Shown here: one piece after another, positions 1 to 30,845 of the stretch
How positions within the stretch are numbered: position 1 is the stretch's first letter
Layout: each line of letters begins with the position of its first letter
Virus record (IMG/VR): IMGVR_UViG_3300033067_001435
Span: 2,744 to 66,743 of that record
Length of the DNA stretch: 64,000 bases
Strand: one strand, 5' to 3'
DNA from: a virus
Taxonomy: Duplodnaviria > Caudoviricetes
Notes under the pieces: generated by a model
Told to the model about the DNA's origin: nothing
What the model saw: the letters and a program-made list of their open reading frames with translations, nothing else
The model's database searches: none
Program-made: the position numbers and the translations under genes

Positions 1-2365
1 CAACTGCTTCTAATTCCCTGACTACTTTATCAAATTCTTTTGCTATTGAAAGGTCTGATTCAACCTTTTCTAACTTTGAAATTAATAGTCTATAGGAGTC
101 AAATTCACTTGTATATGCGTCAAGTAACTTCGGCATGTTTTTAATGGCCTCTTGTGCATCCTTAACAAACTCATTGTTAGTACAGAACTGACAGTTTGGA
201 TCATATTCATGTTTATCAAGATGTTCTTTTTTGCTTTGTGCTATCTTATATTCATTCAATGAACCTTCGTATTTCCTTTTACTCTGATTTACTTTTGTTT
301 GTATATCCCGGTATTTGTCAACTAACTCTGAATAACTGTTAGATGTTCCACCTCTCTTTACAACTCTCTGCAATTCTTTTTTCTGAGTAAGTAATTCATT
401 TTCTTGTAATATGGTAGATTGTAGGTCAGAACCTGCGCTATTTCGAGCCATTATGTAATATTCTATTTGGCTTTTAATATGTGATATGTTTAGTGTAGAG
501 TCTGTTTTCTGATACTCCTTACTTAGTATTATGATTTGTGCATTGGTTTCTTTTATTTCAGATTCTACTTCTTTTAGTTGATCATCTATTCGGTTAAGTT
601 CTTGCTTCAATACACCAATTTGATTAGATAATATTGAGGATTTTTCTGTTAAATCATCCTTCTCAAGTTCTTTAATTAAAGTTTGATATTCCTTAGATTC
701 ATCTTTTGCAAGTTTAAATAGATCATCATATATGAAAATATCAAGAAACTTGTAAAGTAATTCTTTTCTATCTTTTTGAGTTGTATCAACAAAATTCTGG
801 TTATCATATTGTGTTGACATTGATACCATTACAAAATCATCATAACTTCCCAAGTAGTCTCTTATTGCATAATTTGTCTTATCTCTATCTTCTCTATTTA
901 ATCTAACCTCAATACCATCTTCTTCTGTCCAAAAATTAACATCAACCTTTACACTCCCAGTTTTTTCATTCAAGGTTCCAGTTCTTTCTATGTAATATAT
1001 CTGACCCGCTAATTCAAAAGACAGTTTACAATAGAAACTTTTCTTTGAATTATTTAGTACATGACTTGCCTTTGTTGCACGAGTTGATTTGTCAAAAATT
1101 ACAAAAGTTAGAATATCAAAAAGAGCAGACTTTCCACTATAATTTTTAGCAAATAATCCGTACAATCCTTTAAAGTTTGTGAAGTCAATGTAGTTATCAT
1201 CTCCATAAGAAAACATATTTGAAAATTCTAATCTAAGAGGTTTCCATGTTATGTTTCTAACACCATTTTGTGTAGGCAATCGTTTGTTTAATTCAAAATT
1301 TAACTTACATAGATCGTCTATATCTTCGGAATCTACATTGGGATTTACACTCAAGAATTTTTTCATTATACCATTTTGGTATTCTACATCCCGGCTATCT
1401 CCAAGTAACTCTTCTCTGGCTTCTATAGAATTGAATGCAGTTGATATTTTCTGCAATGATAACTCTACTATTTTGTATCGCTCCGAAAGTTCACGTTTGA
1501 ACTCCTCAAGTTGGTGTAACTGCGTATTTTCATGTTTAATTCTAACCCGCAAATTTTTAGGTAAGTAATCTGGAATGTCACACTTTCCGTTTATTAGATG
1601 GAAGGTAAAGTACCCAAACTCATTATCAAGTTTTACAAGTTCTGACTTTCTATTCTTTACATCCCAAACCAAAAATCCATGTCTATCTATTGACTCTCCA
1701 TGATCTTGTTGAATTGCAGAACCACTATATTTTACAACTGGTAATTTACCTCTAACCTTTGATTTGCCAGTTCCAGAGGTATATGGTTGAACTGTCTGCT
1801 CCATGTGAATATCACCAAGCATAACAATGTCAAATCCATCAAATACAGAGGTATTAGTACCATGTTGAATGGTAATCAAGTCAGTTCTTGAGCCTATTAA
1901 TGGACCATGATGAAGGGCTATTTTAAACTCATCATCAATGTCCTTTGCATGAACCCATTTATCTGGGCTATCAAATATCCCAAACAAGGAAAATGTTGTA
2001 TCCATCAGCCTATAAACACCACTATCCTTCCAATAATGTAAATTTGGATGGTTCATAGCATCTACAACTGGTGTAAGTGCATCAAGTCTATTTGAGTTAG
2101 AAAGGTTTCCATCATGGTTGCCGGGTGTTAAAACTGTTGTACAGGTATCAGCACAATCTTTTAAGAACCTTGAAACAATCTGGAAAAGTTCGGGGGACAT
2201 TTCTGTTTTTGAGTGAACAACATCCCCACCAATGAATATTATAGAGTTTTCGTCTTTGTGTTTTTTAACGTACAATATGAAATTTCTAAGTACGGAATTG
2301 AATTCTTTATGCCTCTGATATAGACGAAAATGTATATCAGATATGTGGAATATTTTGGTTATCAA
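1..2365 (-). CDS. sbcCD: Fused Mre11/SbcD nuclease - Rad50/SbcC ATPase (runs off left edge, 3'-partial)
   Basis: Absent from the ORF track because it has no stop in the window. Hand translation from TTG 2365 gives SDIH, GGD, PGNHD, HHG and LGDIH metallophosphoesterase motifs. The frame continues without a stop (checked codon by codon 2040-1246) into WKPLRLEFSNMFSYG, Walker A KNYSGKS, coiled coil and zinc hook DPNCQFC (~190). Confidence 0.9.
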   Translation of the reverse strand, partial: MITKIFHISDIHFRLYQRHKEFNSVLRNFILYVKKHKDENSIIFIGGDVVHSKTEMSPELFQIVSRFLKDCADTCTTVLTPGNHDGNLSNSNRLDALTPVVDAMNHPNLHYWKDSGVYRLMDTTFSLFGIFDSPDKWVHAKDIDDEFKIALHHGPLIGSRTDLITIQHGTNTSVFDGFDIVMLGDIHMEQTVQPYTSGTGKSKVRGKLPVVKYSGSAIQQDHGESIDRHGFLVWDVKNRKSELVKLDNEFGYFTFHLINGKCDIPDYLPKNLRVRIKHENTQLHQLEEFKRELSERYKIVELSLQKISTAFNSIEAREELLGDSRDVEYQNGIMKKFLSVNPNVDSEDIDDLCKLNFELNKRLPTQNGVRNITWKPLRLEFSNMFSYGDDNYIDFTNFKGLYGLFAKNYSGKSALFDILTFVIFDKSTRATKASHVLNNSKKSFYCKLSFELAGQIYYIERTGTLNEKTGSVKVDVNFWTEEDGIEVRLNREDRDKTNYAIRDYLGSYDDFVMVSMSTQYDNQNFVDTTQKDRKELLYKFLDIFIYDDLFKLAKDESKEYQTLIKELEKDDLTEKSSILSNQIGVLKQELNRIDDQLKEVESEIKETNAQIIILSKEYQKTDSTLNISHIKSQIEYYIMARNSAGSDLQSTILQENELLTQKKELQRVVKRGGTSNSYSELVDKYRDIQTKVNQSKRKYEGSLNEYKIAQSKKEHLDKHEYDPNCQFCTNNEFVKDAQEAIKNMPKLLDAYTSEFDSYRLLISKLEKVESDLSIAKEFDKVVRELEAV

Positions 2366-2376
2366 AATTTTTTATT

Positions 2377-2724
2377 TTAATTATTATGAGTTTCAATCTT
2401 TATAGAAGTCCAATTTTTTTGGTTTCTTAATACAACATTATAACCTTCCATGCAAAAATCACAAACCTTACTAAATATATCATCGGGAAAATACCCATCA
2501 TCAACTTCTTTTAGACTTTCTGGCCAGTTTGTGGTATCAAATAGAGATTTAAACTGATACCAACTTATATTTTCATCTAATAATTTAATAGACTTTACAC
2601 TTTTAAACATATTTTTAACTTGATTTACTGCATTTTCTTCGGTATCTGTGAATATAATTGCTGGTAAATCTTTTTTATCATCATTATAAGATATTATTAC
2701 CCAATAACCTGTTAATTTTTTCAT
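2377..2724 (-). CDS. Hypothetical protein
   Basis: 115 aa ORF tightly packed with neighbours. Confidence 0.6.
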   Translation of the reverse strand: MKKLTGYWVIISYNDDKKDLPAIIFTDTEENAVNQVKNMFKSVKSIKLLDENISWYQFKSLFDTTNWPESLKEVDDGYFPDDIFSKVCDFCMEGYNVVLRNQKNWTSIKIETHNN

Positions 2725-2727
2725 ACT

Positions 2728-3144
2728 TTAGTAATTAATTACTTTGTAAACTAAATTATATTTTTTAGATAGTTCTATCATGGATTTTGTTCCGGGAGAT
2801 TTTTTATCCCAAAAAAGTATCGCATGACTAGCAATCTTGGCCATCTCTTCATTTCTAATTGGTCCGGCTGCTGCATTGTACTTTCCACCATTTCTTTTGT
2901 GTCTAACCTTGGCTCTTGGATCATCAATATCATCCCACTTTGCTGGCATTTCTATTAATTCAAATCCCCAATCTTTTGCAAACCATTCCCCAAGTGAATC
3001 GGCTCCGTTTGCTTTGCCTGATATTATTTGAATTTTTGGAGGAGTTTCTTCCGGGTTTATATTTTCAAGTATAAACTTTTTTGTTTCTGCTTCAAGTAGT
3101 TTATAATTGAAAAAATCTCTCCCTCCTGCTATTATTAATTTCAT
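2728..3144 (-). CDS. YspA/DUF2493-like SLOG-family nucleotide-binding protein
   Basis: LIIAGGRDF, SGKANGADSLG, AAGPIRNEEM, FWDKKSPGT motifs. Confidence 0.8.
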   Translation of the reverse strand: MKLIIAGGRDFFNYKLLEAETKKFILENINPEETPPKIQIISGKANGADSLGEWFAKDWGFELIEMPAKWDDIDDPRAKVRHKRNGGKYNAAAGPIRNEEMAKIASHAILFWDKKSPGTKSMIELSKKYNLVYKVINY

Positions 3145-3546: not shown

Positions 3547-4499
3547 TTGTTTAATTTACTTAATATGTTAAATTTTGTACTTGTTGTCTCTGTTACTTTT
3601 TTTGCATTATCAATGTATTCCCAAACCTTTTGATGTCCAAGACTTGTTGGATCATGGTAGATGGTATGATCGTGTAACTTAGTCTGTTCTTCATCTACTG
3701 GAAACTTGGTTATGTAAACCTCTATTCCATGATCAAGAAACCATTGGCTATATCTCATAATGTCCTTTACTGCATCTCCATCAAGACATAAGTAAACAAC
3801 CTTTACATTCTCATCCAATATTTTTTTAAAGAGGGATTTTGATATTTGCTTTCCATTTAATGGAATGGCATTTCTTCGAACAATAATGGCATCAAGTTTA
3901 GATTCTACCAGTATAATCGGTTCTGACCAATTTATTAAACCTTCATCGAATATTTGATCTTTTTCTATTGCTGTTGGAGTAGCAAACTTAAACAATGCTA
4001 ATGGATTGAAACTTCTACCAGTTAGGTAAGTCAAGGTTCCATTTTCATTGTAGAATGGGAACACAATCATATCTTTGTATTTACCACTTGTACAATATCC
4101 AATTCTGTGTTTGAATATATCTAATGAGGTAACACCTCTACCAAATAAATAACTTATAGCCTTATTGTAAAATAGCCCTGTACTGGGCTTCCATAAAGGT
4201 TCAAACTCCTTTGGAAGGGTTAAACCTTGAACAACATCTTTTTTTTGATTGTAAGTCTCTACAAATAAAGACTTAGCCTTTGTAATTACTTGAGAAGGTG
4301 CTACAAGTTTATGTAAAAGTATTGTTACTTTACTTCCATTGGTTCCACATACCCAACACTTCCACTTACCAGTTCCAAGGCTAACACCTAACTTTGGCTT
4401 GTGATGGTTGCAAAATGGGCATGAAAACTGATAGTAATCTCTGTTTGTCTTATGACCTTGACCCAGAACAGACTCAAGGAGTTGTAGTTTTTCGGACAT
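3543..4499 (-). CDS. dnaG: DNA primase (DnaG/T4 gp61-like)
   Basis: Zn finger CPFCNHH...WKCWVC, IVFPFYN, TOPRIM LVES..D and CLDGDA. Start moved to MSEK (4499) because the ORF-track start 4544 overlaps a promoter. Confidence 0.88.
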   Translation of the reverse strand: MSEKLQLLESVLGQGHKTNRDYYQFSCPFCNHHKPKLGVSLGTGKWKCWVCGTNGSKVTILLHKLVAPSQVITKAKSLFVETYNQKKDVVQGLTLPKEFEPLWKPSTGLFYNKAISYLFGRGVTSLDIFKHRIGYCTSGKYKDMIVFPFYNENGTLTYLTGRSFNPLALFKFATPTAIEKDQIFDEGLINWSEPIILVESKLDAIIVRRNAIPLNGKQISKSLFKKILDENVKVVYLCLDGDAVKDIMRYSQWFLDHGIEVYITKFPVDEEQTKLHDHTIYHDPTSLGHQKVWEYIDNAKKVTETTSTKFNILSKLNK

Positions 4500-6938: not shown

Positions 6939-8681
6939 TTAACTATCCCATTTTACAGATATATTTAGGTTTACATCATCCCTCATTTGCAATGGCTGGC
7001 TTAATTTTGCTACTGCTACTAATTCTCTTTTTTCATTGTATAGACCTATTGCTGTTGCGTATGGAAACAATGCACCTTCTGCAAGAGAACCTGTCATTTC
7101 ATCAATTATTAAATCAGAGTTAGGGTTTACCAAAGTTGTAGGATTTTGAGAAAGGTTAAAACTTCCGGCTGGAATCCTTACTAAACACTCATATGAGTAT
7201 ATCATGTGAGTAGACCTAAATTTCAATGTCCAATCATTAACCATTGCATTGTTGTATTTAGATTCATGTCCTGATATAACAACGTTTCCAGACTTATAAA
7301 ATACATTACCAACCACAGCAGTTTGATAAGAAGCCATTCCATTACTATTAGCAAGTGTTACTACATTATTACTGGTAAGTGCTTTATTGTAAATTCTAAT
7401 TTCATCTAAATATCCAGTATATGATGTCTTATAGTTTTGATTATCAGAACCAAACATTAAACAGTGATTGTTTATTGGATGATTTGTGTTATCTGTCTTT
7501 GATTGTGCTAAATTTCCATTTACATATAAACTAACCATTGATCCTGATTTTGTTACTGCCACGTGAACAAAATTTGATGTATATGATGATGATAATGTAC
7601 AAGTATTGATTCCATCACTTCTTCTAAACTCTAATATACGAGAGGTAGGTAGTCCTGTTGCAGTATCATTGTATATCCTAAAATCATACGGAAACACATT
7701 AGTATCTTCGTCTATGTAAGATGCTGATGTATATGTATTTTTCACAGTCAACCCATTAGAATTTACCCAAGGTTGGTTTCCATATTTCTCTTTCCATATA
7801 GTTCCTTTCTTAGATATGACAGTATTATACGGATATGTTAGATTAAATTGCTCATCTTGAGCATTTTTCATCCAAAATGCAATGGTAAAATCTTCATTTG
7901 ATGCAAAATTAAAATCTGGTCTATCCTTTGTTAATATATATGAATTACTATCAAAAAATACAGAAAATCCAGACGCTGTTGTATTTAAGTCTATTCCATT
8001 TGATAATTTAATATTTTTACTAAAACTTGGCACATCAGGGCTAAATGTCTTAGATTTATAAGTAACATCACCTTCTATAATGCAATCATTTCCTGAATTA
8101 TTTGGTATAACATCATCGTGTGATAAGTGTTTAAGTTCTTTAAATTTCCTAAACTCGTCATTAAATCCCCAATACGCTACAAGATTGTAACTATCCGAAA
8201 ATGATCCTGTATCTATTGATGGATCATATAAATTTCCATTTCCATCATCATTTAAGTAAAAACCAGATGCAGTTATTTCTACCGATCTCGGCTTTATTGA
8301 TTCCCCATAATCAAGATATGGTATTGATATTATAGATGCACTAACTCCTAAAAACTTATATGTGAACCTTTCATTTGAATGTTCAAATGTTTTATATGGA
8401 TCGTATGGGTTTCTATAGAACTGAGCATCAATACTACTCCAAATTAAACTTTTATATGATCCATCAAACGAATTAGTTTCATAAGTATTTTGTGAATCAG
8501 TGCCTAATTTTAATTTCCCTGTAGGATACCTTGCTTCCAATAGTTTATACCCACTCCCTGTTTGAGGAAGTGATCCAGAATAAAACTGAGACCTCTGAAC
8601 AATAAACTTTTTAAATACCTTTGTAGGTGTGAGAGTAAAGTCTTGAGGCAGAACTGTTTGGTAAACATGTGGTATGCTCAT
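6939..8681 (-). CDS. Virion structural protein with LamG/ConA-like domain and shared C-terminal tail-attachment-like domain
   Basis: LVAYWGFND, DFTIAFWMK, HVAVTKSG, LYVNG, GYLDEIRIYNKAL; C-terminal IGLYNEKRELVAVAKLSQP. Confidence 0.75.
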   Translation of the reverse strand: MSIPHVYQTVLPQDFTLTPTKVFKKFIVQRSQFYSGSLPQTGSGYKLLEARYPTGKLKLGTDSQNTYETNSFDGSYKSLIWSSIDAQFYRNPYDPYKTFEHSNERFTYKFLGVSASIISIPYLDYGESIKPRSVEITASGFYLNDDGNGNLYDPSIDTGSFSDSYNLVAYWGFNDEFRKFKELKHLSHDDVIPNNSGNDCIIEGDVTYKSKTFSPDVPSFSKNIKLSNGIDLNTTASGFSVFFDSNSYILTKDRPDFNFASNEDFTIAFWMKNAQDEQFNLTYPYNTVISKKGTIWKEKYGNQPWVNSNGLTVKNTYTSASYIDEDTNVFPYDFRIYNDTATGLPTSRILEFRRSDGINTCTLSSSYTSNFVHVAVTKSGSMVSLYVNGNLAQSKTDNTNHPINNHCLMFGSDNQNYKTSYTGYLDEIRIYNKALTSNNVVTLANSNGMASYQTAVVGNVFYKSGNVVISGHESKYNNAMVNDWTLKFRSTHMIYSYECLVRIPAGSFNLSQNPTTLVNPNSDLIIDEMTGSLAEGALFPYATAIGLYNEKRELVAVAKLSQPLQMRDDVNLNISVKWDS

Positions 8682-13007: not shown

Positions 13008-13603
13008 TATTTACTTTTAATATCTTTTAATATGTTTTTTAATTTCATATAATTCTCTTCAATTGCTTTATTTTTCAAAGCATCTACTCCCATTTTTACA
13101 TATCTTTGATAAGTGTTACTATCAACTGTTACATTTTTTCCTGAATTACTATCTGGTTCTCCAACAGGGCTTCCCCATATTTTCCACCCATTTTTTAATT
13201 TTTTAATAACAACCCTTTGTTCCTGTCCTTTAACAGTAAAAATATCATCAAAGTGATCTAAATTGTTTGTCAACGAAATTAAAAAACAATGTACAAAAAC
13301 ATTACCTGATGTTGCTGAATCTTTTAAAGATGTCATTTCTATATTCCTATTACTTTCGTTTATATGAGTTAATATACTAAATACTTGCCTTGCTATACTT
13401 ATAGGTATTTTAGGACGTAACTCATAAATTCCTTTTGGCTTCCCCTTTAAACCTTTCTTAGTCCAATCTGGGGATGTATTTGTAATACTATATTCCTTAT
13501 TGTTGTGATAATACATTAACTTAGGAGTGTATATTACCCAATCTAAATCATCAATAGGAAGTTTACTATGAATCACGTATAATGTTTTATCTTTATATCT
13601 CAT
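13007..13603 (-). CDS. Hypothetical protein
   Basis: 198 aa; ends with MKLKNILKDIK. Confidence 0.6.
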   Translation of the reverse strand: MRYKDKTLYVIHSKLPIDDLDWVIYTPKLMYYHNNKEYSITNTSPDWTKKGLKGKPKGIYELRPKIPISIARQVFSILTHINESNRNIEMTSLKDSATSGNVFVHCFLISLTNNLDHFDDIFTVKGQEQRVVIKKLKNGWKIWGSPVGEPDSNSGKNVTVDSNTYQRYVKMGVDALKNKAIEENYMKLKNILKDIKSK

Positions 13604-13617
13604 TGAATATTAACATT

Positions 13618-15072
13618 TTAAAATTCGAGTTTCATTTTAATTAACGCTTCTTTAGTAAATTTCTTTTGAAGTGGTTTACTTAATTTACCAACAGCAAGTA
13701 AATCTTTATTATCATTGTAAAGTCCTACTGTTGTGATGTAAATTGTTGGATCACCAATCATTGTTGGTTCTGCTAAGTCTCCTTCACTTCCTGTTACAAA
13801 AGTTGGGTTATTAGTAAAGTTATACTCCTGATTCTTTACTCTAACAAAGTAATGTGTTGATTTAACCTTTTCACCACTTCTACCTTGGAATCCTAACCTG
13901 TCACCACTTGCATCTGTATAAAGGGCTGAACCTGATAATGATGTAAATAACTTATATGCATTATCACCGGGAATTTCTGATCCAGTTACTGTTAAAAATG
14001 ATGCAGACATGTCAAGTCTATTTCCATCAAGTACAATTACACCTAATCTTCTATAAAGTTTTCCATAATAATGTGGTGCTGAACTGTTATAAATACCATC
14101 TTCAAGTGTTCCTGATACAATGTTGTAAACTTCACCGGCTGTCGTGACATCTGCTGATGCTACTCTACTGTCATCTACTAATCTTGTTACTGCTTGTGTT
14201 GGGAATACACTTACATTAGAACCTGTCCATGAGTTTTGGGTATGTGTGGCTAACCATTGTGAACCCGATAACCTTTGAAGATTTATTTCAAGGTTCCCTT
14301 CATCAATAAATTCACGCATACGCGCTCTATTTACATTTATAACATAAATTGAATCAGTTGCTGTTCCACCAATTACAAATCTTTGTTCATCTGCCTCAAG
14401 ACATAATTGCTTATATTGACCATAAATTGCACGGCTTGGTGTATCATTTATTTGACCACCTTCATCTGCTGAACCTGATCCTTGTTTGTGTCCCCAAGCA
14501 ACAGAAAATTGTGCCTCACTACCACATTCACCAGAACCGCTATTGAAAATTTCATAATAATATCTTTGTTGTGTTGAATTTTGTGCTGATGATGTGTAGA
14601 AAGTTAATAAGTTGCCTACATTTCCGCTCCATAAAGCACGAGTTATTGTTTCCTGTTGATTTGGTACAATATCACCTGTTTCGAACCTTGTCCAAATTCT
14701 ACCAGAACCTAAATTAGATGGTGGAAGAGGTGCTGGAAAGGTTGGAGTTGTTGGTAGTAATGGTCCGCCGGTTTGTCCTTCGGTTGGTTTAATGGTTCCT
14801 GTGTCTAATGATGGACCTGTTGGGATAACATTATGAACAACATTATTTTCATCAAGAACTAAGAAATCACCTTTAGTGGTTTCAAATCCTGAAACACTTA
14901 TTCCCGGTATGATTTGCTTTGTGGTTGGTTGCGTATTTTGTAACACACTTGGATCATTAGATACAGGAATTAATGTTAATCCTGCTCCTTCCATCTTAGA
15001 TTTCTGTGATTCATCTAACTTTTGGACCGTTCCACCTGTATTAGTAGCCACACCTTTTTTTATAAATGCCAT
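13618..15072 (-). CDS. Virion structural protein (tail/baseplate associated), paralogue of 11388-13007
   Basis: Long aligned core (AIYGQYKQLCLE, DEGNLEINL, RVKNQEYNFTNNP); C-terminal VGLYNDNKDLLAVGKLSKP. Confidence 0.75.
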   Translation of the reverse strand: MAFIKKGVATNTGGTVQKLDESQKSKMEGAGLTLIPVSNDPSVLQNTQPTTKQIIPGISVSGFETTKGDFLVLDENNVVHNVIPTGPSLDTGTIKPTEGQTGGPLLPTTPTFPAPLPPSNLGSGRIWTRFETGDIVPNQQETITRALWSGNVGNLLTFYTSSAQNSTQQRYYYEIFNSGSGECGSEAQFSVAWGHKQGSGSADEGGQINDTPSRAIYGQYKQLCLEADEQRFVIGGTATDSIYVINVNRARMREFIDEGNLEINLQRLSGSQWLATHTQNSWTGSNVSVFPTQAVTRLVDDSRVASADVTTAGEVYNIVSGTLEDGIYNSSAPHYYGKLYRRLGVIVLDGNRLDMSASFLTVTGSEIPGDNAYKLFTSLSGSALYTDASGDRLGFQGRSGEKVKSTHYFVRVKNQEYNFTNNPTFVTGSEGDLAEPTMIGDPTIYITTVGLYNDNKDLLAVGKLSKPLQKKFTKEALIKMKLEF

Positions 15073-15781: not shown

Positions 15782-16735
15782 TTATGGAAGTTTAATTGGT
15801 GCATTACCAGTTAACGGAATGTTAGGTGTAGTATTTGTAGTCACTTTTCTAACTGTTATATTGATTACAACGTTACCACCAGTCTCATTACCAACTATGG
15901 TTAATGTTGTTGATCTTGCTGCAAGGTTCAACATGTTTGCTGTTATTACAATACTCTTTCCTGATACAGTTACTGATGCTCCAATTTCACTCTCAGTTAA
16001 TGGTGCTGCAACCATATTTCCAGTACCTGAATACTGTTGTCCGGGTGCTGCCTGATCTACATACATTGAACAAACATCACTATCTGCTAAAGTGAATGAA
16101 TATCCAAAGGTTGTATTTCCATCTGTGTAGTTAATTGTTTGTGGAGTTATTGTAATACTTTGGCCCGGACTCAATGTAAATGAAGTCTGTGGAACTGATA
16201 CAACTGGAATTCTAACTGTCTTTCTTGGAAGAGTGACAAGTTTATATTTCATATTCTGAGTTTCATCAGGTACAGCCTCTGTTATTGGCATACTTTCAAG
16301 TACAATCCCATAATAAGCATTTCCTAATGGATGATCAGGATTCCACAATGAATAATCTATTTCATCATCTGCAAGCGCAAAATAACTTACATTAAACTCA
16401 TTACGTCCACGACTAAGTAGTTCCCTACCTTTTCGAGTTAATCATTTTGTTATCCAAAAGGCTTTTTATCCTCTTGTTCTTACAATTTATTTCTTGTAAG
16501 GTCGGCGTACATTTTCAACCAATTCATAAATCTGGTTGTCGGAGACTCTTGGAAGTTTTCTTGCTCTCTTATTGCTCAACTTCTACGCTCTACAAGGAAT
16601 TTTGATTTAAACCCCTCTCGGTATTGCCATTTCAGGTTTCACCGATTTTCCCCAATTTTTACCCTATCATTACTGATTGGGGCGACATTAATCTATCGCA
16701 TCTACAGTTATACTGGAATTTGATAAATATCCCAT
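15782..16735 (-). CDS. Intron-split virion structural protein (exon 1 16735-16695, exon 2 16442-15782; 233 aa)
   Basis: Spliced reading MGYLSNSSITVDAI|LTRKGRELLSRGRNEFNVSYFALADDEIDYSLWNPDHP...; 41+661=702 nt, in frame. The ORF track shows only the TTG-started 3' part. Confidence 0.85.
16443..16694 (-). ncRNA. Group I self-splicing intron, 252 nt, no internal ORF
   Basis: 5' exon ends in U, intron ends in G. P1 GCGAU/GUCGC (U.G at splice site); P10 UUAAU/AUUAA; P2 with GUAA loop; P3 UUGGGGA/UCUCCGA; P4-P5 AUCGGUGAAACC...GGCAAUACCGAG; P7 GAGCGUA/UACGC; P7.1 GAAGUU/AACUUC; P8 CAACCA/UGGUUG; P9 CUUACAA/UUGUAAG. Confidence 0.92.
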
Positions 16736-16749
16736 TTTTATTTGTCCTT

Positions 16750-17676
16750 TTATGTTTTATTTAAAATAATATTCTGTTTGAACTCTTTAACTTCTCTATC
16801 AAACAAATATTTAAACTCTTTATTATTGTGTATTTTTGAATGACATGACCTGCACACAAATATAAGATTATCAAAACTATCATTAGTTTTATTTTCATCT
16901 ATGTGGTGTAAGCATAATATTTTAGTATCATCTTTACATTTAAAACACACTCCGCTCTGTTGTTCCCTTAAAATCTTCCTATACTCCTTATCATAGAACT
17001 TCTCTGAATATGGAATATCTTTATTGGGATTAAACTTATGATGATTCTCCCCAGACCTATTTCTAATTATTTCATTGGTATTTTTATTAAGCCCTTTACT
17101 CCAAGACACCGATTCTCCTGATGCAAATTTATCTAATTTTGTTTTAGAAGACTTAGTACCAACTCTTTTGTAAATATCCTCTAACTCTTCTTTTGATTTT
17201 ATTTTAGTATAGTGGGTGTATGTTCCTTCTTTTGCTTGTCTTCTTTTAGTTTCTGTCATTTTAATAACCCGTCTGTCTCTTTCCTCAGTAGACATACTCT
17301 TCATAAATTTAGACCTTCTATCCCGTTCCTCCAAAGTAAAGATATGAGGATTCTCAGATAAACTCTTTTTAACAGATTTTGATAGTTTAGTGAGAGCATT
17401 TTTATACTCTTCTGAATTTTTATCATAAACTGTTTGCCAAGTGCCACCACCAGAATGTCCTCTTACATATTCGTTTACTTCGTAACCATTCACTTTTAGA
17501 GATTTACCACATCCACAAGCACATGTTGGAATCACTCCATCAAGTAAATATTTTATTGTGTAATCTGATTTAGTAATACCGTGTTCAGATTGAATGTGTT
17601 GTGTAAAAGCGCCTACTGAGTTGTGATCTTTTCCGCAAACTTTACAGATATAATCTGTTAATAAATTCTTTGCCAT
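16750..17676 (-). CDS. Free-standing HNH homing endonuclease with N-terminal C2H2 zinc finger
   Basis: CKVC...HIQSEH, CACGCG, C-terminal CFKC...LHHIDENKTNDSFDNLIFVCRSCHSKIH. Confidence 0.85.
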   Translation of the reverse strand: MAKNLLTDYICKVCGKDHNSVGAFTQHIQSEHGITKSDYTIKYLLDGVIPTCACGCGKSLKVNGYEVNEYVRGHSGGGTWQTVYDKNSEEYKNALTKLSKSVKKSLSENPHIFTLEERDRRSKFMKSMSTEERDRRVIKMTETKRRQAKEGTYTHYTKIKSKEELEDIYKRVGTKSSKTKLDKFASGESVSWSKGLNKNTNEIIRNRSGENHHKFNPNKDIPYSEKFYDKEYRKILREQQSGVCFKCKDDTKILCLHHIDENKTNDSFDNLIFVCRSCHSKIHNNKEFKYLFDREVKEFKQNIILNKT

Positions 17677-27660: not shown

Positions 27661-27947
27661 ATAGTACCCTCTTCAATAAAATAAGTAAACATATCCCAAG
27701 AATCGTTTGTTAGTGCTGATGACTTATCTAAATTATCTTCCCAAGGAATGAACCTTAAATTCTTTATATTTGCAATTATGTGTGGGTCTATATTATTCTT
27801 AAAACCCTGTCTAATTGAATATATGTGATCTAATTGATATGCTCCTACCTTACCTGACTTACCCCTGTATTTATAATTTTCTAATAAATGTACTGGCTGT
27901 CGGTTTGTTTCCTTCTTTACTATCCTATTGTATTCTTTGTATGTCAT
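27657..27947 (-). CDS. Small stand-alone HNH-like domain protein
   Basis: YQLDHIYSI...NLRFIPWEDNLDK. Confidence 0.6.
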   Translation of the reverse strand: MTYKEYNRIVKKETNRQPVHLLENYKYRGKSGKVGAYQLDHIYSIRQGFKNNIDPHIIANIKNLRFIPWEDNLDKSSALTNDSWDMFTYFIEEGTI

Positions 27948-29830
27948 ATTTCTACTGCTCGAATCAAAATATCACGTTTAGGAAAAGGGATTCTAAATAA
28001 ACTTGGATCAAGACTTGGATATAATATATCCCCTCTTGTTGCTGTTTTTAAATCATACTGGTTTCCACTATATCCTGAATTCTGATCTACTTTATTTATA
28101 AATTCTATTTTTTGTATTGATTGTACTCCATCTACTTTATCCAATTCATTTCTAATTGAAGATAAAAGTATTGGTTGGTTTATTTGTAGTTTTTCTGGCT
28201 TAAATAGTTCAATTAACTTTTCACTACATTTTAATAGAACCTCGTTGCTATTTTCATTTGGCCTAACAATTACGTCCACATTAATTCCCAAATCTATCAA
28301 AAATGGGTCTTTGATGTTTATTGCATCAGTCATAAGCCTATACTGCTTTAAATACTGCCTCAAGTTCTCTTTAATTGCTTCATTTGCTGGGATTGGGTTT
28401 CCAAGACTATCAGCAGCAAGGATGTAAAGGTTCAACGCAAATGGATTTGGTGTTCTCTCTTCGTTCCACTGTCCTAATTGAAAATCCTGTTCAACGTATG
28501 CCTTTGATATTCCGCCATATTTAGCAGGCATCGCAAAACATCTAAGTATATAATCTTCCTTAGTAACTGCCCTGTTTTGTGCAGCAAAGTTTGCCATTGC
28601 TTCCTGACGAATGTTATCCAGAGCCTTTCTATTTTGTCCGCCGAATGCTGGATAAGGATTATTTATTGACAACGAATTCTTTATGGTTTGAAGAACTGTA
28701 GAATCTGTTGAATCAATTGGGTCAATTATTTCGCTGGTTGTAATATCATTTATAGTGTTCGATGAAACATTATCTACAATACCATTTGCTACTGCATATT
28801 GAACTGTTAATATTGTATTGGCTGGAACACTCCCATATGTTCTTGTATATAAGAAGTTCATTGGATCAATGCTCACATCTACAACCCTTTCAAAATAATT
28901 AAGCCCTAATCCTACATTCATTGGATTTGGAACTATTTCCTCATCTGCTTCACTACTCAATCCTGAACCAAATTGTATTTCAGTAAAATCATCTTTCCTT
29001 AACCTTGATACGAACCTTCTTTCTGTTTGTTTATAGCAAAGTATATATGGAACTGAACTTCTATACTGGCTTAGTTTTGGATCGTTATATGGAAGGTTTC
29101 TAACTGATATTGGGACTAAATCTTGTGCCAAATACGGTACTTCATACCAAGTATTATTATCACTATCTGTAACCTTTACAACTTCTGTTACATTATCTTC
29201 ATCCAGTACAATTTTATCGTAAATTTTTGGATCAGAGAATTGGAATGTTTTGGTTTTTAATTCACCACTAACTGCTCGAACCTTTTTCTTCAATAGATAA
29301 TACTCTATTGCTCCATCACCAGTCACAGAATAAACTGTAATTGTAGTTGGATCAAAACTTGAACTGAATCTGAAATCTATTGCATCTTTAGTGTAAAATG
29401 GAACTGCATCTTTATCAGATGTAGCCACTTGCATATTCTCCTTTATATAGAGACCATACCTAAAATCTGGTTTTGTATTTGTACCAGAGCCAACTGATGG
29501 AACCAATTGAAACACATCTAAATCTACTGATGCCGGGACGACTGTTTTTGCCTTATATCCCATCCCCTGAGAAAGGTTGTATAGATTTATTCTCTCTTCT
29601 ACATTTGATAGTAGAGATTCTTGCAGATTTACGTCAGCAAAGAAGGCTAATGCATCGCCAACATAAGAAGCCATCTCGATCATCATCGTTCCCGGAGAAG
29701 CCTCATTAAAATCTGAAACTGTATTAGGAAAATATTGCTTTGCATGATTTATCAAAGCAATACGAAATTCTGCGAAATCCTTATTTACATAACTTACGTT
29801 TCTTTTATATCTACTATTAAGCATTGCCAT
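27944..29830 (-). CDS. Baseplate wedge subunit (T4 gp6/baseplate J-like)
   Basis: KDFAEFR, SDFNEASPG, EIQFGSG, AFGGQ, QNRAVTKEDY. Confidence 0.85.
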   Translation of the reverse strand: MAMLNSRYKRNVSYVNKDFAEFRIALINHAKQYFPNTVSDFNEASPGTMMIEMASYVGDALAFFADVNLQESLLSNVEERINLYNLSQGMGYKAKTVVPASVDLDVFQLVPSVGSGTNTKPDFRYGLYIKENMQVATSDKDAVPFYTKDAIDFRFSSSFDPTTITVYSVTGDGAIEYYLLKKKVRAVSGELKTKTFQFSDPKIYDKIVLDEDNVTEVVKVTDSDNNTWYEVPYLAQDLVPISVRNLPYNDPKLSQYRSSVPYILCYKQTERRFVSRLRKDDFTEIQFGSGLSSEADEEIVPNPMNVGLGLNYFERVVDVSIDPMNFLYTRTYGSVPANTILTVQYAVANGIVDNVSSNTINDITTSEIIDPIDSTDSTVLQTIKNSLSINNPYPAFGGQNRKALDNIRQEAMANFAAQNRAVTKEDYILRCFAMPAKYGGISKAYVEQDFQLGQWNEERTPNPFALNLYILAADSLGNPIPANEAIKENLRQYLKQYRLMTDAINIKDPFLIDLGINVDVIVRPNENSNEVLLKCSEKLIELFKPEKLQINQPILLSSIRNELDKVDGVQSIQKIEFINKVDQNSGYSGNQYDLKTATRGDILYPSLDPSLFRIPFPKRDILIRAVEI

Positions 29831-30845
29831 GACTATACTCTCCCTTCTTTATTTTAAGTCTAACCACATCCACGCTAACCCCCAATTCTACTGATAACTC
29901 TTTTATAGTACCATAAACTCGTCCAGTTACATGGTCTATAACTTTTTTAGCATTTGGGTTTTTAGAACCTGATTTATCCCACCTACCTACATTAGTGTAG
30001 TCTTTTTTTAATCCCTTTAAGTGGTCGGTATTTTCTAACTTTCGTCCCCTTAGAGTATTTCCTATTTTTACTCCTGCGCACTTTTTGCATACACAACTTA
30101 AATTATGACTATCTAATACACTGCTCCTTGTTGTGTAGTACATCACTGTGTTACAATTTGGGCAGTGTCTTGAAAATTTTTTATTATTAGTTTCTGAAAC
30201 CCTACTAACTCCGTCAGGTAGTGGCCACCTTTTTAACGAGATTACTCTATTTATTTCTTTTATTTTCATCCTTCTATCCTCAGATACTGTGTATTTTTTA
30301 CCGTAGTTTGGATTTCCACTACCTTTCATTCTTTCAGAGTGTTTTTTGTTTTGTTGCTCACTGTGTATTCTGTTAGATTGTATGCTACTTATTTTATTTT
30401 TAACTTCCTCAGTATGTTTTTTACCATACATAGGGTTTCCCTCACCAATCATAGCATCCTTTGTATATTCATTGGCTGATTTCCAGAAATCTAATAAATA
30501 AGTTTCAATATTCTCTCCAAAAAGCCTTTTCAAGGTTCTTCTTGCGACTCTTCTTATTAAGTTCCCAGATGAAATATTATACTTATACTCGTTTGATTTT
30601 CTATCAAAACACTCAGCAAGTATAATATGTGCTTTAAAATGGTCTTCGGGTGTAAGTATGATAAAATTATCTGACTCATTACTCCCGCCCATGAAGACTG
30701 GGAGTATGTGATGCTTGTGTTTGGCATACGACTCTATGTCCTTTTGCCTGCACTCAAGCAAAAAGTCTTCATAAGGCTTTAGCCTATCAACATCATAACC
30801 GTTTTTTTGAAAATGCACTAACAAGGTACTTCCTCCAATTTCCAT
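29817..30845 (-). CDS. Free-standing HNH homing endonuclease with NUMOD3 and C-terminal HTH
   Basis: HKHHILPVFMGGSNESDNFIILTPEDHFKAH, GEGNPMYGKKHTEE, KVIDHVTGRVYGTIKE. Confidence 0.85.
   Translation of the reverse strand: MEIGGSTLLVHFQKNGYDVDRLKPYEDFLLECRQKDIESYAKHKHHILPVFMGGSNESDNFIILTPEDHFKAHIILAECFDRKSNEYKYNISSGNLIRRVARRTLKRLFGENIETYLLDFWKSANEYTKDAMIGEGNPMYGKKHTEEVKNKISSIQSNRIHSEQQNKKHSERMKGSGNPNYGKKYTVSEDRRMKIKEINRVISLKRWPLPDGVSRVSETNNKKFSRHCPNCNTVMYYTTRSSVLDSHNLSCVCKKCAGVKIGNTLRGRKLENTDHLKGLKKDYTNVGRWDKSGSKNPNAKKVIDHVTGRVYGTIKELSVELGVSVDVVRLKIKKGEYSHGNA

Follow-up and report, generated by a model that had tools for sequence, protein, structure and literature searches.

The occurrence of group I introns in structural genes of phages and collaborative (trans) homing are both already established. 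In prophages of the Bacillus cereus group, group I introns designated TMP-IVS1, TMP-IVS2 and TMP-IVS3 lie in tape-measure genes (Tourasse and Kolsto, 2008; PMC2504315), and in the Cluster J mycobacteriophages introns in capsid and tail genes have been confirmed by RT-PCR (Pope et al., 2013; PMC3706429). Collaborative homing is represented by the psbA intron of cyanophage S-PM2, which is paired with F-CphI, and by T4 mobE, which is paired with an nrdB intron lacking I-TevIII (PMC6083498, PMC2790892; reviewed in PMC3984707).

The locus described here lies in a 64,000-nt stretch of DNA (the window) from a virus of the Caudoviricetes (IMG/VR record IMGVR_UViG_3300033067_001435), in which a 252-nt insert interrupts a gene close to its start codon. 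The explanation favored for this arrangement, with a probability of roughly 0.88 for the whole, is that the insert is a functional, ORF-less IA-type group I intron, that it is selfish, and that homing in trans is its likeliest means of spread. The identity of the insert as an intron, taken by itself, is highly probable from the comparisons set out below. All features of the locus are encoded on the minus strand and are given in window coordinates.

The interrupted gene and its exon junction

Exon 1 (16695–16735, minus strand) is preceded by a Shine-Dalgarno-like AAGGA and consists of 13 codons and 2 nt from the ATG at 16735, ending in GAU GCG AU. Exon 2 (15782–16442, minus strand) begins with A UUA ACU CGA AAA GGU, in which the first A completes the codon left open by exon 1, and comprises 219 codons and a stop codon at 15784–15782, as read from translation of the minus strand. 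Between them is the 252-nt insert (16443–16694, minus strand), the last base of which is G16443 and within which no ORF exceeds 30 aa on the sense strand or 52 aa on the antisense strand. The insertion site is 41 nt from the start codon and divides codon 14 as AU-A, in phase 2. The initial annotation had placed the intron after codon 14; the gene is indeed split at that codon, but the codon itself is divided, and the coordinates, P1, P10 and terminal G given there are all correct.

Removal of the insert restores the N-terminus MGYLSNSSITVDAILTRKGRELL, as read in intronless homologues, and the ligated junction predicted for the spliced RNA is GAUGCGAU joined to AUUAACUCG; at intronless junctions of the L055 type the corresponding sequence is GATGCTAT followed by ACTAAC. 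Relatives of the host protein are encoded at 17 IMG/VR loci, with the junction uninterrupted in 11 of them. Intronless homologues read MGYL..VDAI LT.KGRELL across the junction, and the VDAI LT.KG motif, which had been proposed as a check on the intron, is read through without interruption in 13 intronless alleles, including those of L054, L055, Flavobacterium phage immuto_2-6A and Microcystis phage Mel-JY01. The homologues in the latter two phages start MGYLDN..TVDAILTKKGRELLA, and L054 and L055, whose protein is 95–96% identical to that of the window, read MGYLSNQSITVDAILTRKGRELLSRGRNE. Relative to L055 the insert is a clean indel, the blastn alignment breaking off at L055 position 3000 and resuming at 3002.

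The exon-2 protein has 7547 homologues at E ≤ 1e-5, most of them 233 aa in length, which equals 14 + 219 residues. A minority of the homologues have been called at 219, 212, 211 or 197 aa and start at or after the beginning of exon 2, for example with MT(K/R)RGRELL, and the longest ORF in the gene of the window starts at TTG 16348 and is 188 aa long. The expectation that automatic calling would truncate this gene is therefore borne out by this ORF and by the shortened public calls.

Reading on from exon 1 (A GAU UAA), translation of unspliced RNA would meet an in-frame UAA at 16688–16690 (minus strand), which is intron nt 5–7, and UAA or UGA occupies the same three positions in all six orthologous intron copies. 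Group I introns that interrupt protein-coding genes often contain a stop codon in this frame, a feature that has been linked to the exclusion of ribosomes from the folding core (PMC3984707). The UAA would halt ribosomes on the unspliced transcript, and the spliced product would be a tail-module protein of 233 aa whose C-terminal domain is Ig-like.

The host protein matched no Pfam or PHROG family, and only "hypothetical" viral clusters in the protein atlas. An AlphaFold model was made of a 96%-identical intronless protein (pLDDT 63), of which the confident part, residues 94–215, is a beta-sandwich that matches the BIG2/Ig-like domains found in decoration proteins, major tail proteins and proteins of Hoc type. 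The same-strand block contains baseplate-wedge-like genes at 27944–29830 (PHROG 219, E 4.7e-14) and 6939–8681, and in immuto a gene with a tail-fiber annotation lies three genes downstream of the homologue. The neighborhood and the Ig-like C-terminal domain suggest that the host gene is likely a virion structural gene, as had been proposed, but family assignment lends this no support; its placement in the tail or baseplate is suggested by the neighborhood. Downstream, at 13618–15072 (minus strand), is a gene for a 484-aa protein that has been assigned to no family and is present as two to three tandem paralogues in L034, L044, L001 and L002.

Helices and covariation of the predicted intron core

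The transcript would fold into the standard core, from P1 to P10 with a P3/P7 pseudoknot. P1 (16682–16699, minus strand) is formed by exon GCGAU (16699–16695) and the guide GUCGC (16686–16682), with a U·G wobble (U16695·G16686) at the splice site. It is 100% paired in the six orthologues and 89.5% paired in a set of 42 family members (see below), in which all five pairs covary with the differing host exons and the commonest terminal pair is U·G (19 of 35). The P10 guide UUAAU (16687–16691, minus strand) pairs with AUUAA of exon 2 (16442–16438), the pairing being 96.7% in the orthologues and 62.7% across the family. P2 (16662–16681, minus strand) is a hairpin with a GNRA loop (GUAA) in which five of eight pairs are changed on both sides among the orthologues, and in L039 its stem is wholly rewritten and carries a GCAA loop.

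The 5′ strand of P3, UUGGGGA (16649–16655, minus strand), is followed by J3/4 (AAA) and has UCUCCGA (16545–16539) as its partner. Among the orthologues P3 is 100% paired with two double changes, UUGGGGA/UCUCCGA being replaced by UCGGUCA/UGACCGA, and in the family it is 83% paired. The P4-P5-P6 domain (16595–16645, minus strand) is supported by pair counts and by the Rfam alignment of a family member, L046, in which all three helices have the same positions. Within it, P4 (16645–16641 with 16622–16618) shows a U-A to A-U change among the orthologues, P5 (16637–16626) is weak, with 2–3 bp only, and P6 occupies 16616–16595. The 5′ strand of P7, G-(bulged A)-GCGUA (16584–16590, minus strand), pairs with UACGCC (16509–16504). 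P7 is 100% paired in the 42 sequences, its G115-C198 pair is invariant (42/42), and in L063 and L064 two of its G-C pairs are both replaced by A-U; the pseudoknot that it forms with P3 contains the presumed G-binding G-C pair.

Extra pairings between P7 and P3′ are a mark of subgroup IA (PMC3984707). Here this position is occupied by a single hairpin, P7.1 (16552–16583, minus strand), with an inner extension in some relatives and no separate P7.2; four of its six pairs show double changes and pairs 1–4 are formed in all 42 sequences. The 3′ part of the core (16455–16538, minus strand) consists of P8 (16538–16516), J8/7 (AAAAUG), P7′, P9 (16500–16479) and P9.1 (16476–16455). In the 42 members, 97.5, 98.6 and 99.3% of cells are paired in P8, P9 and P9.1, with five, six and seven pairs, respectively, altered on both sides. 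On such a fold, exogenous guanosine would bind in P7 and cleavage would occur after U16695 in the U·G pair of P1, whereupon the terminal G16443 would take the place of the guanosine and P10 would guide ligation of exon 1 to exon 2; both catalysis and splicing in vivo are predicted in this way from the sequence.

The statistical comparison used an alignment of the six orthologous introns (A1), in which helices were placed manually and P7 and P10 were entered as pseudoknots, and a covariance model built from it (R1), to which P3 and P7 pairing was not fitted, so that the family pair counts for these two helices (83 and 100%) are conservative. In A1, 95.2% of cells are paired and 22 pairs show double changes; none of 500 shuffles was as good, and controls in which the layout was slid gave 34–46%. 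R1 has a single match in the window, at 306.6 bits, scores 127.8 bits on L046, and yields the 42 strong, distinct family members referred to above. Across these, 89.9% of cells are paired, compared with 67.5% in shuffled and 36–43% in slid controls (0/500 shuffles as good), double changes occur in 62 of 73 pairs, and the covariation score is 0.471 as against 0.136 for shuffled alignments. Folded as a single sequence, the window intron gives z = −3.75.

Searched with the Rfam group I model (RF00028), the window gave no group I match at the gathering score or at E ≤ 10. The same model does match L046 over its full length (42.5 bits, E 1e-7 to 1e-9; gathering score 50), and its alignment places P3, P4, P5, P6, R, P3′, P8, S and P9 as in the manual layout, with an R-like element GUAGAGCGUA and an S-like element GAAAAUGUACGCC. 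The P7 strands of the window correspond to the R and S elements of Rfam, and relative to RF00028 the P7.1 of L046 is a 28-nt insertion between R and P3′. The group I model search that had been suggested thus leaves the window copy unmatched but recovers a family member with the same helix layout. The family therefore shares the helix order and the R- and S-like elements of Intron_gpI, although the window copy is missed even at E = 10 and the best member tested falls at 42.5 of the 50 bits required; the miss is read as low sensitivity of the model to this IA-type family, not as counter-evidence on the fold. Together with the intronless homologues, the fold and its covariation uphold the initial annotation of an ORF-less, IA-like and unannotated group I intron.

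Failure of RF00028 to recognize the window copy, together with the truncated products given by gene callers, could instead be taken to mean that the insert is a dead relic and that the gene is either broken or yields an N-terminally truncated product initiated internally, for instance at TTG 16348. This is very improbable: all core helices are intact, with compensatory changes across lineages whose host proteins are 66–78% identical, the exon bases of P1 and P10 are held fixed, and exon 1 retains its start codon, its AAGGA and its 14 conserved residues. Translational bypass of the 252 nt and an assembly artifact were also considered and were rejected because the same insert, with compensatory changes, occurs in several independent metagenomes.

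Distribution and descent of the intron family

Orthologous introns occupy the same site in L014, L034, L039/L044, L063, L064 and L071. Scans of IMG/VR and metagenomes for the junction pattern returned mostly contigs that other searches had also found, together with four chance high-GC matches; L071 was the only new one. Beyond this site, a core motif search detected the intron family at 49 IMG/VR loci, and blastn detected it in 61 GenBank phage records, from phages of Staphylococcus, Clostridium, Clostridioides, Enterocloster, Bacillus and Arcanobacterium. The family occupies unrelated genes in unrelated phages and is often found in tape-measure genes, as in Arcanobacterium phage TPWB06 and the Staphylococcus 6ec-like phages. 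The rarity of introns in tail and other structural genes, on which the initial annotation had remarked, was therefore overstated, both in view of the described cases (PMC2504315, PMC3706429) and of the relatives of this intron in tape-measure genes.

Several family members have features of their own. In TPWB06 (L003:2386–2639; PQ358086.1) the GenBank record divides the tape-measure gene into two CDS with a small antisense ORF and leaves the intron unannotated; the P1 of this intron is UGGGU/GCCCA, its P10 is AAUAAC/GUUAUU, and its removal fuses the two frames in register (L G - N N M A A Q E). L046 has introns at 1883–2157 and 2274–2551 (minus strand), approximately 120 nt apart, and the second, different intron there passes the RF00028 gathering score at 65.6 bits. 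L019 has two copies of the family (3812–4077 and 13379–13631, minus strand). In L008, L011, L020, L012, L017, L033, L042, L049 and L052 the introns contain coding sequence in the 5′ half or in P9 and are likely endonuclease-bearing versions; tblastn found no close homologue of the HNH protein of the window (see below) among the ORFs of these nine.

The initial annotation had proposed splicing as a gate on the synthesis of a late structural protein. A regulatory gate of this kind would delay or tune synthesis of the host protein, for example through competition between exon-1 translation and P1 folding, and the position of the insert would lend itself to such a role, since ribosomes on unspliced RNA would cover P1 before reaching the UAA when the site is only 41 nt from the start codon. 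Neither the sequence nor the comparisons bear any regulatory sign, however: close relatives have no intron, the same intron family resides in many unrelated genes, the Rfam search of the window detected no riboswitch or other sensor, and an in-frame stop is general in group I introns of protein genes (PMC3984707). Regulatory gating is accordingly considered quite unlikely, and the data agree with a selfish element that is phenotypically neutral.

Alleles approximately 95% identical in protein differ in whether they contain the intron. All six intron-bearing alleles keep GA(U/C)GCGAU immediately before the insertion site and AUUAAC after it, and the 13 intronless alleles vary freely at the synonymous positions there (for example GCU AU-A CUA, GCC AU-A CUU and UGU AU-U UUG, with the site at the hyphen). 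The fixed exon bases are those that P1 and P10 require, and co-conversion fits the pattern too.

Between the window and L056 the intron is 97–98% identical, whereas the HNH gene is 62–83% and exon 2 68–83% identical, and this island of intron identity could result from lateral spread that was recent and involved short conversion tracts. Intron identities of 97.6, 96.4, 87.4, 78.9 and 72.2% are, however, found at host-protein identities of 94.5, 96.0, 77.9, 65.8 and 69.8%, respectively. Intron identity thus drops alongside host divergence, so that the island may reflect constraint, not recent transfer, and strong constraint with mostly vertical descent of the intron is a possible alternative.

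The intron and its family recall the tape-measure introns of the B. cereus group, which are also small, mostly ORF-less and of IA type, occupy conserved sites in a tail structural gene, have a P3-P7 core that is more conserved than the periphery, and are missed by gene callers, which may split the gene. The host gene here differs in encoding a 233-aa protein and in belonging to an environmental phage lineage related to immuto and Mel-JY01, and the two sets of introns are likened here by description. The introns of the Cluster J phages likewise reside in virion genes, those for capsid and minor tail proteins, were found against intronless relatives, follow an exon-1 U, end in G, include one that is ORF-less, and occur in genomes rich in free-standing HNH genes. 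In Cluster J, splicing has been demonstrated by RT-PCR and N-terminal sequencing and the fold is loosely assigned, whereas in the present case support for the fold is strong and splicing is a prediction.

The upstream HNH gene and the proposed mobility of the intron

Immediately upstream of the interrupted gene is a free-standing gene for a 308-aa HNH endonuclease (16750–17676, minus strand) with an intact CxxC..HH..N..CxxCH..H motif and a C2H2-like zinc finger at its N-terminus. Its stop codon lies 14 nt before the exon-1 ATG, which places the end of the gene 55 nt from the insertion site. The protein matches HNH families of PHROG (best E 7.5e-8) and scores 18.7 bits against Pfam HNH, below the cut-off of 21.4. 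Relative to L055 the gene is a separate indel of approximately 930 nt. It adjoins the intron in five of seven intron-bearing lineages (the window, L014, L034, L039/L044 and L063), and neither L054, L055 nor any other of the 13 intronless alleles has it; the two remaining intron-bearing lineages, L064 and L071, also have no HNH gene.

The intron would most likely spread by DNA-level homing with an endonuclease supplied in trans, and the best candidate for this enzyme is the adjacent HNH protein. The arrangement resembles known collaborative pairs in that the insertion site is the candidate target, both intron and endonuclease are polymorphic among relatives, the intron of the window has no endonuclease ORF, and an intact HNH gene adjoins the interrupted gene. 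It differs in that the enzyme, predicted here from sequence, is an HNH protein with a C2H2-like finger encoded upstream of its candidate target, and in that intron and HNH gene are separate in some relatives and have diverged to clearly unequal degrees. The HNH proteins are 40–60% identical where the introns are 87–98% identical, which speaks against recent joint transfer and weakens the claim that the two move as one unit. A partnership between them is proposed tentatively, at slightly below even odds.

Other ORFs occur in the same spacer. In two intronless lineages (L057:1952–2923 and L060:660–1733, the latter representing L060/61), ORFs upstream of the same target gene have their N-terminal 210–230 residues in common with the HNH protein of the window (26–35% identity), and their C-terminal domain differs. 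Beyond the zinc finger these ORFs have no match in Pfam, PHROG or PDB, although the C-terminal domain may contain a nuclease-like IEFDE..H motif. The arrangement looks like catalytic-domain swapping among homing endonucleases, and the presence of such ORFs beside an uninterrupted target indicates that the spacer upstream of the host gene is a probable hot spot for endonuclease genes. In L060 a 96-aa duplicate fragment of the C-terminal domain (2650–2940) directly precedes the target gene. In L054, the closest intronless relative, the spacer that matches the HNH position contains a 60-aa ORF (2035–2217) with a NUMOD3-like IPWNKG motif, perhaps all that is left of an endonuclease gene that has decayed. 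Elsewhere in the window, a second homing endonuclease gene that is also free-standing (29817–30845, minus strand; PHROG 655, E 6.5e-24) overlaps the end of the baseplate-wedge-like gene at 27944–29830 (minus strand), and the tail module thus contains more than one selfish nuclease.

These observations bear on a second reading, in which the intron is genuine but has no partner in the HNH gene, the upstream space being a landing site for independent endonuclease genes (intronless homing) and the intron having arrived and persisted separately. The intron without HNH in L064 and L071, the far greater divergence of the HNH gene, the zinc-finger ORFs with another C-terminal domain in intronless L057 and L060/61, the IPWNKG ORF of L054 and the second endonuclease beside the baseplate gene would all be expected from it, and it is a serious possibility, though rated somewhat below even odds. 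Against it, the HNH gene of the window type accompanies intron-bearing alleles exclusively (five lineages, as against 0/13 intronless), and the 55-nt spacing matches the geometry of collaborative pairs already described (PMC2790892, PMC6083498, PMC3984707).

A further arrangement, which appears unlikely, would have the 5′ end of the tail-module gene contested by nucleases that share a zinc-finger module and differ in their C-termini, an HNH C-terminus in the lineage of the window and another domain in the L057 and L060 nucleases. The intron would split the target and so protect its carrier as an "immunity" insert, and would pass between co-infecting phages separately from the nuclease genes.

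The preferred reading, a selfish group I intron that most likely homes in trans, leaves the general picture of group I intron function and homing unchanged. It adds an environmental lineage of non-Firmicute type (the relatives of immuto and Mel-JY01) to the phages with introns in the tail module. It also identifies a family of small phage introns of IA type that is widespread and escapes the Rfam group I model, and as a consequence public records contain truncated or split genes, such as the 219-aa calls of the host protein and the tape-measure gene of TPWB06 with its two CDS. Many phage annotations could be mended with a covariance model derived from this intron family. Finally, the alleles form a natural series, in which the intron and the HNH gene occur together, the intron or a nuclease-like ORF occurs by itself, or both are absent, and this series could be used for tests of collaborative homing.
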